A stretch of 64,000 bases of DNA, taken from contig OY968796.1 of assembly GCA_963695545.1 (NCBI GenBank), positions 288,001 through 352,000 on the forward strand. Direction: 5' to 3'. Positions 55,328 to 58,848 of the stretch are shown piece after piece; position 1 is the first letter of the stretch, and each line of letters opens with the position of its first letter. This stretch comes from Terriglobia bacterium (GTDB lineage: Bacteria > Acidobacteriota > Terriglobia > Acidiferrales > UBA7541). Position numbers and translations under genes: made by a program. The notes below the pieces were generated by a model that saw only the letters and a program-made list of their open reading frames with translations, ran no database searches and was not told the DNA's origin.

Positions 55328-55585
55328 TCTATTCGAATACCCAATCAGTTTATATTTACAAATCGTAATTGACAATCGTAATTGCCATGCTATAATGTGT
55401 TCCTATCGTCGGAGCGCTTCGTGCCTCCAGGCGGAACGCAATACCTCGCCGCAGTCGCTTCAAATCCCTCGCCAAATCCTCTCGCGTCGCCGAAAAAACG
55501 CCCTAACCCTTCTAGAATGACCAGTTCTGAGAAATCGCATTTTAACCTCTCTAGAATCAACACTTCTGGCGCAAAGGACTTAAAG
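55328..55585 (+). repeat. Promoter-led non-coding repeat element (copy B, left part), interrupted by the IS
   Basis: TCTATTCGAATAC; TTGACA(55369)-16-TATAAT(55391); AGAA-N7-TTCTG units at 55514 and 55553. Confidence 0.6.
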
Positions 55586-55646
55586 GGCGATTATGTACTT
55601 GACAAAGTAACGCGATTCAGGTAGTCTCTGTGTCAGTGAGGCTGCC

Positions 55647-56630
55647 ATGAACCTGATAGACGTAACCCGAAAGTTCGCCACGAAAGAAGCCTGCAACGAA
55701 TACCTAGCCGCGATGCGCTGGCCGAATGGCGTCACATGCACTCATTGCGGCGTTGTCGGCGACGATCAATTCCGCTCGTTCACCACGCGCGAGACTGAGC
55801 GCAAGCGGTACAGCAAGCGCAAGAAGGCTGTTGTTACGGTCAAGGTTCCGTCGCGCAGCCTGTACGAGTGCAAGGGCTGCGGCTATCAATTCAGCGCGAC
55901 CACGGGCACGGTGTTCCATGATTCGCACTTGCCGCTGGAAAAGTGGTTCATGGCGATTGCGTTGATTCTGGAAGCGAAGAAAGGAATCAGCGCATTGCAG
56001 GTCTGCCGCAATCTTGGAATCCCTGAGAGTAGCTACCGGACGGTCTGGTATCTCTGCCATCGCATCCGTGAAGCCACGCAAGAGACCGGCCTGCTATCCG
56101 GCATCGTTGAGACCGACGAGACCTACCTGACACCGAAGAAGCCGCGCAAGGGAGCGCCGAAAGTGAAGAAAGAAAAACGCGACGTGGTACTTGGCATGAT
56201 CGAGCGCGGCGGCAGGCTGCGAATGGTTCCGATGCGCGACGCGAAGATGGAGATAATCGAACCCATCCTTGCGAAGCACATCGCGCCCGACGCCACGCTA
56301 CAAACTGACGAACACCCGACCTACGCGATAATCGGGAAGCGCCGTTTTCCCGGCAGGCATCGCGCGATCAACCACAGCCAGTCCTACGGGATTGGCGACA
56401 ACACAACCAACTCGATTGAGAATGCGTTCTCGCTGTTAAAGCGCGGCGTCTATGGGACGTTCCACAAGGTCTCGATAAAGCACCTTGGCCGCTATTGCAA
56501 CGAGTTTTCCTACAGGTTCAATCGGCGCGGGAATCAGTCGGAGATGTTCGGCGAGACCGTGAAGGGATTGCTAAACAACGGGCCGCTGCCGCTCAAGAAG
56601 CTGACTGCTTCCGAAACATCGGAGACTTAG
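55647..56630 (+). CDS. IS1595-family DDE transposase
   Basis: RWPNG..CxxC...CxxC zinc ribbon, HTH, 'ETDETY', 'TDE', 'NH', 'TNSIEN', 'HL.RY.NEF.YRFN.R'; promoter TTGACA(55599)-17-TAGTCT starts inside the left TIR. Confidence 0.93.
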   Translation: MNLIDVTRKFATKEACNEYLAAMRWPNGVTCTHCGVVGDDQFRSFTTRETERKRYSKRKKAVVTVKVPSRSLYECKGCGYQFSATTGTVFHDSHLPLEKWFMAIALILEAKKGISALQVCRNLGIPESSYRTVWYLCHRIREATQETGLLSGIVETDETYLTPKKPRKGAPKVKKEKRDVVLGMIERGGRLRMVPMRDAKMEIIEPILAKHIAPDATLQTDEHPTYAIIGKRRFPGRHRAINHSQSYGIGDNTTNSIENAFSLLKRGVYGTFHKVSIKHLGRYCNEFSYRFNRRGNQSEMFGETVKGLLNNGPLPLKKLTASETSET

Positions 56631-56742
56631 AACCGCGCTTTCCAGAAGTTTTTATCTCGCTCTGTGGCTTTGGCTTTGAGCCGAGCAATGCGGAGAGTAC
56701 CGCGTCGAACTTCTTCTTCTCGACAAGTACCCTTTTCTTCAT
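56593..56742 (-). CDS. 49-aa basic protein convergently overlapping the transposase 3' end
   Basis: Hand-translated MKKRVLVEKKKFDAVLSALLGSKPKPQSEIKTSGKRGSKSPMFRKQSAS; no clear RBS. Confidence 0.45.
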   Translation of the reverse strand: MKKRVLVEKKKFDAVLSALLGSKPKPQSEIKTSGKRGSKSPMFRKQSAS

Positions 56743-56768
56743 GGGTGAATCGTAGCATAATTGCTTAG

Positions 56769-56860
56769 CGGGGCCGGAAGGATTCGGACCTTCGGAACGT
56801 GCCTTAACACGTTTCGCCCGATTATAAGTCGGGTGCTTTAAACCACTCAGCCACGGCCCC
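56769..56860 (-). tRNA. Atypical tRNA-like gene: long variable arm, anticodon UAU, G73, no encoded CCA
   Basis: GGGGCCG-TG-GCT GAGTGGTTTAA AGC-A-CCCGA CTTATAA TCGGG-variable arm (AACGTG/CACGTT)-GAAGG TCCGAAT CCTTC-CGGCCCC-G. Confidence 0.85.
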
Positions 56861-56869
56861 GCTAAGCAA

Positions 56870-56974
56870 TCAAGTGCGCCCGCCCCGGTAAGGAAACGGG
56901 CGCACCTTTGAAAAGTCTAAGTTGAAAACTGGTGGCGGTCGTGCTATAAAGGAGACCAACCGTAGGCGCATCAT
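56870..56974 (-). CDS. Putative 33-34 aa leader peptide upstream of the tRNA-like gene
   Basis: AAAGGAGG RBS then ATGATG; MMRLRLVSFIARPPPVFNLDFSKVRPFPYRGGRT*. Confidence 0.55.
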   Translation of the reverse strand: MMRLRLVSFIARPPPVFNLDFSKVRPFPYRGGRT

Positions 56975-57021
56975 CGCGCCTCCTTTCGTGAACATCGACA
57001 GTCGCTAAGGGATAGGTTCTA

Positions 57022-57053
57022 GGGGTAAGAGAGGTTACAGCCTCTCTTACCCC
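57022..57053. terminator. Perfect 13-bp hairpin (terminator or processing site)
   Basis: GGGGTAAGAGAGG-TTACAG-CCTCTCTTACCCC just after the 138-aa ORF stop; no U-tract. Confidence 0.55.
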
Positions 57054-57068
57054 GCTTCTACTTATGGT

Positions 57069-57485
57069 TCATTTAGTCCGTTTCCCCACAAACCCTACAG
57101 CAAGAAGGGGCTGTTTGTTTGCTTGAAGGTGCTCTTCGGGTATTTCGGCAACAAACATGGATTCCGATTCGTCCCACTTAGCAGGATACGATCGAGACTC
57201 AGACCGGTCATAGCCGATGTAGTCCATGAAAGTCTTGGCTGAAAATCCAGCACCGTTTCCCTTCTTCCCGTATGCCAAGGCATAAGCGCGGGAGTCTTTC
57301 TTACTGATCGGGCGAACTCCCAACTGATGCTTGGCTGCATCCCACATCAGCAGAACATACTCAACGGCGTCCTTTTCGAGGATTGCCGTGGCAGATTTGT
57401 TGAATGCTAGACGGCCTAGCTTGTTAAAGGTAACATTAGGGCTGCCACTCCGACGTACTCTGCGCGTGAAAATCTCCCAACTCAT
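57069..57485 (-). CDS. Hypothetical protein (138 aa), transposon cargo
   Basis: Globular composition, AGGAGG RBS, dedicated promoter. Confidence 0.8.
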   Translation of the reverse strand: MSWEIFTRRVRRSGSPNVTFNKLGRLAFNKSATAILEKDAVEYVLLMWDAAKHQLGVRPISKKDSRAYALAYGKKGNGAGFSAKTFMDYIGYDRSESRSYPAKWDESESMFVAEIPEEHLQANKQPLLAVGFVGKRTK

Positions 57486-57523
57486 CGCATTTCCCTCCTA
57501 TTCGAGAAGCATCGACAGAACAG

Positions 57524-57554
57524 ATTATACCATACGTTACATGAGAATTGTCAA
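57524..57554 (-). promoter_or_regulatory. sigma70 promoter for the 138-aa ORF / leader / tRNA-like unit
   Basis: TTGACA-19-TATAAT with extended -10 (TGG TATAAT). Confidence 0.7.
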
Positions 57555-57743
57555 TAGCAAACTTCAGAAACTCCCATTGTTTCCGGTAGCCTCAGAATAC
57601 TGCAAGCCTATCTCGCGTGTCCCTTGGTACGCGGTGAGTTTGACTTGGGAATAGTATGCCGGATACTTTCGTCTTGAAATACATTGCCGCAATCTTTTAT
57701 ATTGCGTTAGTGTAGCTATCGTAATCTGCTGATGAGAAACAAG

Positions 57744-57772
57744 TTGACTGGTTTATCTCGAATGCCTAGTAT
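57744..57772 (+). promoter_or_regulatory. sigma70 promoter for small RNA / DUF3800 gene
   Basis: TTGACT-17-TAGTAT. Confidence 0.65.
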
Positions 57773-57778
57773 ATCTGT

Positions 57779-57846
57779 GCGACTGGGCCGAGACGCTACG
57801 CGACTCTTGCAGGGCCGAACGGCCCCGCCCCAGACGCTTTTTTTTT
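57779..57846 (+). ncRNA. Candidate structured small RNA upstream of the DUF3800 gene
   Basis: Closing stem GCG.CTGGG/CCCAG.CGC enclosing hairpins GAG.CGC-TAC-GCG.CTC and GGGCCG-AA-CGGCCC, followed by T9. Confidence 0.6.
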
Positions 57847-57888
57847 CTCGGTCAATTGCTTCCCTCGAAGAAAGCCTGAAATCCGTAA

Positions 57889-58773
57889 ATGCACCTTTGC
57901 TACATAGATGAAAGTGGCGTGCCTGAACTAAATCAAGGGACGAGTCATTTTGTGCTGCTCGGTCTATCTATCGAGGCGTGGGATTGGAGGGGTCAAGATC
58001 GCGCGGTTTCGGTCGTTAAGCGAAAGTTTGGGCTGTACGGCGCAGAGATTCATACCGGATGGATGACTAGGCGTTATCTTGAGCAGGAGAGAATCCCAAA
58101 TTTTCAATCGCTGGATCGAACTGCTCGCCAAACACAGGTAAGAAAAGAACGGGACGCGCAACTCATCAAAGAGGATGCTCTTAAGGGAAGCAAGGCCGCC
58201 AGAGAACTGCGGAAGAGCTACCGCAAGTCAGATACCTATATTCATTTGACCCTAGGGGAACGAAGGAATTGCCTACGGGAGCTTGCTGATTTGATTGGTG
58301 GGTGGGGAAACGCGCGACTTTTCTGTCATGCAATTGATAAACGCGCCTTTGGGTCAACGCCGCCTGCTAACCCACCACGAGAAGAAGCGTTCACCCACGT
58401 AGTCAGTCGCTTTGAGCGATACCTTTCGGATATAGGAGACCCGCGAACGATCGGACTCCTTGCTCATGACCATGACGATACGTCCGCAGACAGAATGACC
58501 CAATTGATGCGCCAGTTTCATTCGAGCGGAACAATGTGGACTGCCATCACAAGAATTATCGAAACCCCGTTTTTCGTGGACAGTAAATTGACGGTTGGCG
58601 TTCAGTTGGCGGACTTGTGTGCGTATGCTACTCGCCGCTACTGCGAGAAGGGCGAGACCGATTTATTTGATAGAATTTGGCCCCGATTTAACAGGGTTGG
58701 AACGAGGGTAGTCGGGTTGCGCCATTACGTCGGGGCTCGAAACTGCACCTGCCGGATTTGTACTTCACATTAG
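57889..58773 (+). CDS. DUF3800-like (RNase H-like fold) protein
   Basis: N-terminal YIDESG, 'EIH', C-terminal 'FVDS...QLADLCAY'. Confidence 0.85.
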   Translation: MHLCYIDESGVPELNQGTSHFVLLGLSIEAWDWRGQDRAVSVVKRKFGLYGAEIHTGWMTRRYLEQERIPNFQSLDRTARQTQVRKERDAQLIKEDALKGSKAARELRKSYRKSDTYIHLTLGERRNCLRELADLIGGWGNARLFCHAIDKRAFGSTPPANPPREEAFTHVVSRFERYLSDIGDPRTIGLLAHDHDDTSADRMTQLMRQFHSSGTMWTAITRIIETPFFVDSKLTVGVQLADLCAYATRRYCEKGETDLFDRIWPRFNRVGTRVVGLRHYVGARNCTCRICTSH

Positions 58774-58848
58774 AAATACCGCCTGCCTGTCACGCCTCAA
58801 TCCTGCCGTTTGGCCGCTACTTTGTCAAATCCATATTCGCCCTTAAAG

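Follow-up and report, generated by a model that had tools for sequence, protein, structure and literature searches.

The short leader open reading frames (ORFs) of attenuators, with trpL, hisL and TnaC as textbook cases, are led by a Shine-Dalgarno (SD) sequence and followed by an RNA structure. The RAPP/RGPP arrest peptides (ApdA, ApdP, the RQH family, SecM-like peptides and products of upstream ORFs (uORFs) of Streptomyces lividans) are about 50-300 amino acids (aa) long, mostly carry secretion signals or transmembrane segments, and regulate protein genes (sec, yidC, TonB-related, copper). According to the excerpted text of a 2025 survey, arrest at RAPP and RGPP occurs in many N-terminal contexts, RGPP being the most robust; the Ala of RAPP is fully replaced by Gly and partially by Ser, Asp or Pro, the Arg is irreplaceable, and EF-P does not release the arrest (PMC12992588, EMBO J 2025). 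A random-library screen by others, cited there, yielded RxPP with x being Gly, Ala, Ser or Pro, and in an excerpt from a second study the stall occurs with the codon of the third motif residue in the P site (PMC10987492, Nat Commun 2024). Here, a short leader ORF upstream of a tRNA-like gene with anticodon UAU is described in a stretch of 64,000 nucleotides (hereafter the window; contig OY968796.1, positions 288,001 to 352,000, assembly GCA_963695545.1) from a Terriglobia bacterium. With somewhat better than even confidence, this ORF is taken to be a RAPP-like arrest leader that controls the downstream tRNA-like RNA by a route other than the AUA sensing proposed in the initial annotation.

The leaders at this and homologous loci share with the RAPP/RGPP peptides an R-(A/G/S/P)-P-P end, the position of a co-directional upstream ORF, an unconstrained sequence after the motif, an adjacent hairpin within reach of a stalled ribosome and a variable N-terminus. 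The core R-(A/G/S/P/D)-P-(P/G) stands at their conserved end, and the features of the signal or transmembrane subclass are absent. In contrast to the described peptides, only 9-19 residues precede the presumed arrest point, so that the chain would lie wholly inside the exit tunnel with no release by secretion force, and the next gene is a tRNA-like RNA. Like trpL, hisL, pheL and TnaC, they are short SD-led ORFs before an RNA structure, where the position of the ribosome would be expected to be decisive, and several end in Pro-stop, as TnaC does. Unlike attenuators, they have neither tandem control codons nor a T-run terminator/antiterminator, the spacer is short (27-80 nt from motif to tRNA), and an RNA gene lies downstream.

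In the window, the leader ORF is found on the minus strand from 56974/56971 to 56870 and consists of MMRLRLVSFIARPPP, 19 unconserved codons and TGA, the conserved part ending at 56930. An SD, AAAGGAGG, was read from the sequence at 56986-56979 (-). Two in-frame ATGs stand at 56974 and 56971, the second being the start common to all six leaders of the class to which the window belongs (class A, below). The frame translates as MMRLRLVSFIARPPPVFNLDFSKVRPFPYRGGRT and closes at the TGA at 56872-56870 (-), 12 nt from the tRNA and on the same strand; the ORF listing also holds a longer version of 41 aa from 56995, without an SD. The R-P-P-P codons CGA CCG CCA CCA, a RAPP-like core, occupy 56941-56930 (-), and CTCCTTT (56954-56948, -) lies immediately 5' of an ATA codon. 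All features named in the initial annotation, namely the ribosome-binding site, CTCCTTT before ATA, the codons CTA, ATA, CGA and TTA, the RPPP run, the 3' hairpin and the overlap of the TGA with a helix, were found in the sequence. The four codons had been called rare, which is true of CTA, ATA and TTA (2.4, 3.6 and 1.5 per 1000 in the long ORFs of this genome) and does not apply to CGA (10.5 per 1000). Taken singly the leader ORF is ordinary, as there are 95 ORFs of at least 20 aa within 6 kb, and it stands above chance because of its conservation rather than as an ORF. A Pfam search, the only one made with the leader peptide, gave nothing usable.

Homologous loci were collected starting from the tRNA, which is present in a single copy in its own 4.16-Mb genome. 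BLAST matched it in 5 of 60 relatives, the matches spanning the tRNA and not the leader ORF. Public collections were scanned with a pattern from the T arm and the 3' acceptor strand, and these two parts are thus fixed by ascertainment in the family set. The genome collection yielded 33 stretches, of which 16 contain a long tRNA(tat), and the metagenome collection at least 120, with a long tRNA(tat) in 86 of those listed. Four genome loci were dropped as duplicates (L020, L025, L035 and L045, of L002, L006, L003 and L004, respectively), and the remaining 104 loci gave 96 unique ones from Acidobacteriota genomes and soil metagenomes. All family counts refer to the matches listed.

Conservation upstream of homologous tRNA-like genes had been set beforehand as the test of the leader ORF, and it was borne out: a short leader ORF, curated in frame, precedes the long-armed tRNA(UAU) at 50 of the 96 loci. 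Its conserved part always ends in R-(G/P/S/A)-P-(P/S/T), the x residue being G (24 leaders), P (13), S (9) or A (4), exactly the residues obtained in the random-library screen, and the last residue P (43), S (5) or T (2). The Arg is kept through five different codons (CGC 32, CGT 7, CGA 5, CGG 5, AGA 1). The proline run, to which ribosome stalling had been ascribed from the window alone, is thereby the conserved and functionally suggestive part of the peptide (R-x-P-P). The leaders fall into class A, M(M)R[LHR]RFxV[FY]IARPPP; class A', MYTxxAVxGFVxILxRPPP; class B, MH..STKGGFVCI[LF]CR[GSA]PP, for example MHRVSTKGGFVCILCRGPP-stop; and class C, (M)FLY[HY]IRGPP, for example MFLYHIRGPPA. The length up to the motif is 9-19 codons, with 4-15 codons before the Arg in the three main classes. 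Translation starts are ATG in 25, GTG in 22 and TTG in 3, and the expected conservation of the ribosome-binding site was confirmed, with an SD core of at least 4 nt found 5' of the chosen start in 35 of 50; in the alignment of class A, GAAAGGAGG/GAAAGGAAG is kept in all six.

Class-A leaders open with M(M)R-x-R-F (56960-56971 in the window), with RLR, RHR or RRR. This start presumably resembles the Arg/Lys-x-Arg/Lys stall motif of macrolide-bound ribosomes and the MRLRF stretch of ErmDL.

The ATA codon, on which AUA sensing would depend, did not show the same constancy. It stands between the start codon and the motif in 7 of 50 leaders, the six of class A and that of L136, and the others have ATT or ATC, or a Leu codon, at that place. 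Within class A it stands two codons before the Arg in six of six; these leaders are closely alike in nucleotides, and the shared ATA may reflect descent.

Of 93 loci, 51 have the motif R[PGSA]P[PTS] in a forward frame of the 160 nt preceding the tRNA. The reverse strand of these stretches gave 10 of 93, and two control stretches gave 4 of 67 (-420 to -260) and 3 of 61 (+250 to +410); 200 shuffles gave a mean of 6.4 and a maximum of 12. The ratio of nonsynonymous to synonymous differences (pN/pS) was lowest in the leader frame of every group: 0.57 in classes B and A' together (0.83 and 1.65 in the other frames), 0.41 in class A (1.64 and 0.88) and 0.36 in class C (1.10 and 2.81). By this measure, the substitutions fit coding in the leader frame only. 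Protein-level conservation stops at the motif, and the residues downstream are free to vary. Of the 50 leaders, 11 have the stop codon right behind the motif. In 28 the ORF closes ahead of the tRNA, in 22 it closes at a point inside or past the tRNA 5' end, and in 10 the stop is within 15 nt of the tRNA. A fixed distance between stop and helix, as supposed from the window, is therefore not kept, since the stop may come at once behind the motif or as late as within the tRNA. Conservation up to the end of the motif and freedom beyond it are what an arrest peptide predicts.

Between the motif and the tRNA, the window has a 14-bp GC-rich hairpin (56906-56873, -; core GTGCGCCCG/CGGGCGCAC, from the fold), with a spacer z-score of -2.8 against dinucleotide shuffles. 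Over the 50 leader loci the median z was -2.56, with 29 spacers below -2 and 41 below -1. In 46 of 50 loci, pairing begins 6-16 nt past the first base of the P-site codon, and the structure ends 0-12 nt before the tRNA in 49 of 50. Since 39 different innermost stems occur among the 50 spacers, it is structure rather than sequence that is maintained. RNAalifold on 26 aligned spacers gave no consensus pairs, their arms being out of register, and folds of single sequences with shuffles were used in its place. No terminator-like site was called on the minus strand between 56300 and 57700, and on reading the spacers no T run was seen after the hairpins.

A second, small hairpin, AGGCGC/GCGCCU (56964-56981, -), which encloses both ATGs and the 3' end of the SD, appears in the minimum free energy (MFE) fold. 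Read from the alignment, arms of the form GGCGCA..TGCGCC are present in five of six class-A leaders; they are identical and show no covariation. The initial annotation had the SD sequestered by CTCCTTT, a pairing that is not in the predicted fold, and CTCCTTT is absent from the other five class-A leaders.

Parts of the region are present in four metatranscriptome runs of one study, with four contigs on 56400-57500. A contig of 234 nt (56778-57011, two differences from the window) spans the SD, the ORF, the hairpin and the tRNA 5' end, taking in 83 nt of the tRNA, and agrees with one RNA bearing leader and tRNA. A shorter contig (56782-56954, 173 nt, no differences) bridges the ORF, the hairpin and most of the tRNA. 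The other two lie at 57092-57268 and 57101-57261; 56400-56777 and 57012-57091 are uncovered, from which no conclusion was drawn.

Taken together with the comparisons, the following course of events is proposed. The leader, on the same RNA as the class-II tRNA(UAU), would be translated, and the ribosome would arrest at R-x-P-P, its P site occupied by the first Pro of the closing Pro-Pro pair. In most members the hairpin, 6-16 nt downstream, would then be inside or at the edge of the ribosomal mRNA channel; the arrested ribosome would hold it open and keep the 5' leader of the tRNA precursor single-stranded. What would change is the amount of precursor that is processed, stabilised, or read on into the next ORF (ORF2, below). 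What the sequences show is the anatomy of the locus; arrest in this host, its effect on the maturation or stability of the tRNA, and its relief are inferred. The peptide would still be inside the exit tunnel at arrest, so that release would not be by pulling, and a factor acting on the ribosome or a small molecule is the likeliest release signal.

Several observations weigh against an arrest leader. Inside the ORF there is an AT-rich patch, and ATT makes up 34 of 48 Ile codons compared with 31% in the genome; both possibly reflect a constraint at the nucleotide level. The measure of the first paired base counts weak outer pairs, and in the window the strong stem begins 29 nt from the P-site codon. 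Seven of 50 leaders have RSPS or RSPT in place of the Pro-Pro end, and class-B leaders have merely a weak SD before their conserved ATG. The loci are related, so the counts overstate independence; with clustering by leader similarity at 70%, 80% and 90% identity, leaders are borne by 8 of 41, 20 of 57 and 43 of 85 clusters, respectively. The RNA contigs come from a single study, carry neither strand nor ends, and DNA in the library is possible. A sigma-70-like promoter for the leader transcript, searched up to 200 nt upstream of the Arg codon, was found in 0 of 47 loci. Lastly, 46 of the 96 loci lack a leader. The ratios for RGPP and RAPP in the organism's own proteome, 0.35 and 0.55 compared with 1.99 for AAPP, come from a crude ORF set in which AGPP is also at 0.54, and were not used as evidence.

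The leader is optional, since it is absent from those 46 loci and some of them have promoter and palindrome arrangements directly before the tRNA. The alternatives seen there are promoter-like hexamers and palindromes (e.g. L028, L072, L115, L125), the end of a protein gene, or a tandem irregular tRNA. Palindromes such as TATCAC..GTGATA, TACATCAATTTTGATGTA and a repeated ACTTGC..GCAAGT overlap promoter-like hexamers in three sets of loci (L018, L028, L072, L115, L148; L046, L118, L134, L163; L104, L125, L137, L177). This overlap suggests, by its arrangement, repressor control of the same tRNA, which thus appears to be kept under some control by differing means across loci. A sigma-70-like promoter within 80 nt upstream of the tRNA was found in 5 of the 46 loci without a leader vs 0 of the 50 with one.

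The tRNA itself, 93 nt at 56768-56860 (-), is a class-II 7/5 tRNA-like gene called by ARAGORN as tRNA-Ile(tat) and scoring 60.8 bits with the Rfam tRNA model. Its stems, according to the Rfam alignment and the family consensus, are an acceptor of 7 bp, a T stem of 5 bp and a D stem of 3 bp with a large loop, and the variable arm is long. In the alignment of 80 family sequences, compensatory changes occur in 7 of 18 predicted pairs, a pattern that marks the family as a real structured RNA. The T loop (56791-56797) reads UCCGAAU, with C where U55 is usual, a feature fixed by the search pattern; L005, which came from BLAST, has the usual UUCAAAU. G73 and the D loop are like those of this genome's tRNA-Ser genes. 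Since a long variable arm, G73 and a Ser-type D loop agree with the serine identity rules given in the excerpted text of Mukai et al. 2017 (PMC5389517), seryl-tRNA synthetase would be the likeliest charging enzyme, whatever the anticodon.

The same genome has a tRNA-Ile(GAT) and three tRNA(CAT) genes, one of which has a 5' half like that of tRNA-Ile(GAT) and is the candidate for the usual AUA decoder. With this candidate present, the UAU tRNA would be unneeded for reading AUA. Two further ARAGORN calls, a 99-nt tRNA-Ser(gct) at C1:419492-419590 and an 86-nt tRNA-Ala(ggc) at C1:3061455-3061540, seemingly lie inside long ORFs and are probably false positives.

The family shares with the allo-tRNA(UAU) of the excerpted report (PMC5389517) the phylum, the UAU anticodon, a long variable arm, a mostly present G73, a transposon link and tandem irregular tRNAs. 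The allo-tRNAs differ in having a 12-bp acceptor branch divided 8/4 or 9/3 and a tetraloop on a long D stem (PMC5389517, same excerpt), compared with 7/5, a 3-bp D stem and a Ser-type D loop here. Strings typical of the family are absent from the supplementary table of PMC5389517, where the matched UAU entries begin GGAGGG. Identity with allo-tRNA(UAU) was ruled out by the 7/5 structure and this absence. As side observations, the tRNA(UAU) of L002 and that of L054 are each preceded, at a distance of 7 nt, by a 94-nt tRNA(tgc) (1626-1719, -, in L002), a motif-bearing short ORF precedes the tRNA(tgc)/tRNA(UAU) pair in L002, and a tRNA with the stop anticodon tta lies just downstream of the tRNA(UAU) in L005 (1365-1450, -). 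These tandem tRNAs resemble the 'polycistrons of irregular tRNAs' named in the excerpts of PMC5389517.

A wider proposal is tentative and rather doubtful: the arrest peptide would gate a mobile, mismatched tRNA with a serine-type body and an AUA anticodon, and the state of the translation machinery would decide whether a potentially recoding or toxic tRNA matures. Candidates for the gating state would be a rescue factor, or a small molecule or antibiotic that alters arrest at R-x-P-P. If this were true, it would be the first arrest peptide that targets a tRNA and not a protein gene, would extend nascent-chain control to tRNA supply, and would offer soil Acidobacteriota a regulated route to codon-specific mistranslation. 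Control of the tRNA(UAU) also bears on whether mobile tRNAs serve deliberate recoding or are selfish or toxic cargo, and the family provides very short natural RxPP arrest contexts for mechanistic work. In a full-text search of a limited literature collection, the term 'tRNA gene' did not occur in any of the arrest-peptide papers listed, nor in the 2025 survey of RAPP/RGPP uORFs (PMC12992588). Mukai et al. 2017 (PMC5389517) do not use the word 'leader', and their lone 'upstream' concerns selC*. A search of a limited collection for the UAU anticodon, variable arm, serine and mistranslation gave nothing on this tRNA family among the papers listed.

Among the other explanations, the one that survives best is compatible with an arrest leader. 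It is possible, without being probable, that the window tRNA is a decaying or altered copy, poorly processed regardless of its leader. GCCA, encoded in 86 of 96 loci, is missing from it; in place of GCCA stands a 3' trailer arm, identified by sequence comparison, GCTAAGCAAT (56769-56760, -; counted from the discriminator), which pairs with the 5' leader arm ATTGCTTAGC (56870-56861, -). These 10 Watson-Crick leader-trailer pairs and the 7-bp acceptor stem make up the 17-bp helix, whose first base is the A of the leader TGA. The helix had been taken as a basis of regulation, and long pairing of this kind was found at one of 93 loci: leader and trailer pair over at most 3 bp in 90, over 4 bp in one, over 6 bp in one, and over 12 bp counting G-U pairs in the window alone. 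The palindrome ATGnTAnCAT, present between tRNA and ORF2 in 74 of 90 loci, is degenerate in the window (ATGCTACGAT, 56749-56758), and RNA contigs cross the 5' processing site. Against decay, the cloverleaf, leader ORF, SD and motif are all intact, a CCA-adding enzyme could provide the CCA, and contigs cannot reveal the processing state of an RNA. In any case the window copy is atypical, with its main hairpin starting 29 nt off the P-site codon, no CCA and the leader locked to the trailer.

A small functional peptide, for example membrane-active or toxic, with R-x-P-P as its structural end and the tRNA adjacent as shared cargo, is considered unlikely. The peptides are hydrophobic and basic (e.g. 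FVCILCR, VSFIAR), the module is transposon cargo, and irregular tRNAs near toxin-antitoxin genes are mentioned in the excerpts of Mukai et al. (PMC5389517). However, anything from 4 to 15 or more codons can precede the motif, the final residues alone are common to the classes, and the part after the motif is variable or runs into the tRNA (22 of 50), which is a better fit to an arrest site than to a folded product. The tight, conserved spacing to the hairpin and tRNA also argues for a role in cis.

To be given the same low likelihood is a conserved DNA or RNA element (a promoter, a protein-binding site or a leader that pairs with the acceptor), the open frame being a by-product. The AT-rich patch (TTTATAGC, GTATTTTG, TTTATAC) lies inside all classes, and the motif codons, CGCGGnCC, are complementary to tRNA positions 2-9. 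In 34 of 50 loci the free MFE fold lacks the acceptor stem, and in 19 of these it came back with the ribosome site blocked. On the other side, the substitution pattern favours the reading frame, SD and starts are kept in frame, the protein alignment of the classes holds across shifts of nucleotide register, and no sigma-70-like promoter was found in either search (0/50, 0/47). An internal promoter with the AT-rich patch as -10 box would place the start codon outside the tRNA transcript; it was dropped on these promoter counts and because the contig covers the SD and start. An anti-acceptor switch, in which the motif codons mask the acceptor, was also rejected, as the tRNA fold was intact in 21% of shuffled vs 32% of real leaders and in 29 of 45 non-leader loci. 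Since shuffles behave alike, the predicted mispairing of the acceptor is attributed to base composition.

The weakest explanation is that of the initial annotation, in which AUA decoding is sensed and a ribosome at the TGA melts the 17-bp helix in feedback on the RNA's own maturation: its geometry holds in the window (ATA at 56947-56945, TGA overlapping the helix) and the ATA is a rare codon, but it is very improbable, given the 7 of 50 leaders with ATA, the unconserved stop and long helix, a single ATA unlike the tandem control codons of known attenuators, the lack of a T-run terminator on the minus strand, a ribosome that if arrested at RPPP never gets to the TGA, and the other candidate decoder of AUA. 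On comparison of the sequences, AUA sensing, stop-to-helix spacing and SD sequestration are features of the window copy or its closest kin rather than of the family.

The leader and tRNA are cargo of an IS1595-family transposon of 3,256 bp (55586-58841), identified by its transposase, inverted repeats, target duplication and empty site. Its 22-bp terminal inverted repeats (55586-55607 and 58820-58841) match at 19 of 22 positions, CTTAAAG stands at both flanks (55579-55585 and 58842-58848), and a genome of the same genus (G003) has the empty site with a single CTTAAAG, so that comparison gives 55586-58841 as the insertion. The zinc-ribbon DDE transposase, the 22-bp repeats, the short duplication and the empty site in a relative are as in IS1595-family elements with passenger genes. 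Differences are the 7-bp duplication, 8 bp being typical of the family, and a cargo made of a putatively regulated tRNA-like gene and small ORFs. The transposase, with an N-terminal zinc ribbon, is encoded at 55647-56630 on the plus strand (Pfam PF12762, 3.8e-32, and PF12760, 6.1e-10; NCBIfam NF033547, 8.8e-52). The cargo comprises ORF2, tRNA(UAU), the leader ORF, a 138-aa ORF and a DUF3800 gene.

ORF2 (49 aa, MKKRVLVEKKKFDAVL..., 56593-56742, -) begins some 20 nt past the tRNA, on the same strand, and is convergent with the transposase gene, whose 3' end it overlaps. It is Lys-rich (MK.EK.KFD..L...), a strict pattern detected a KFD-type ORF2 in 58 of 90 loci, and there was no family match in Pfam, NCBIfam or PHROGs. 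Upstream of the leader, the 138-aa ORF (57069-57485, -) has a 3' end conserved in class-A loci; it gave no match in Pfam or NCBIfam and a weak one to PHROG 18159 (E = 0.005). An ESM Atlas search returned unnamed clusters only. After this ORF and before the leader lies a hairpin (57022-57053, -), called as terminator-like on the plus strand, whose arms differ among class-A loci yet remain complementary in the alignment.

The distance between the transposase-side repeat and the tRNA start is 1173-1256 nt in 11 of 17 genome-derived loci, and for L024, L017 and L046 the retrieved flank contains the other repeat, upstream of the tRNA. A viral collection held two contigs with the same module, one of them with a class-B leader.

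A second copy of the insertion sequence in the organism's own genome, from C1:2003284 onward, shares the transposase and ORF2 only (87% over 1,174 nt). It has a left repeat at C1:2003284 and no tRNA(UAU) of the window type, and a matching right-end repeat was not found for it. About 3 kb from this copy of transposase and ORF2 lies a second tRNA(tat) (C1:2007231-2007327), of 97 nt and the allo type with a 6-bp D stem, preceded by an apparent irregular tRNA.

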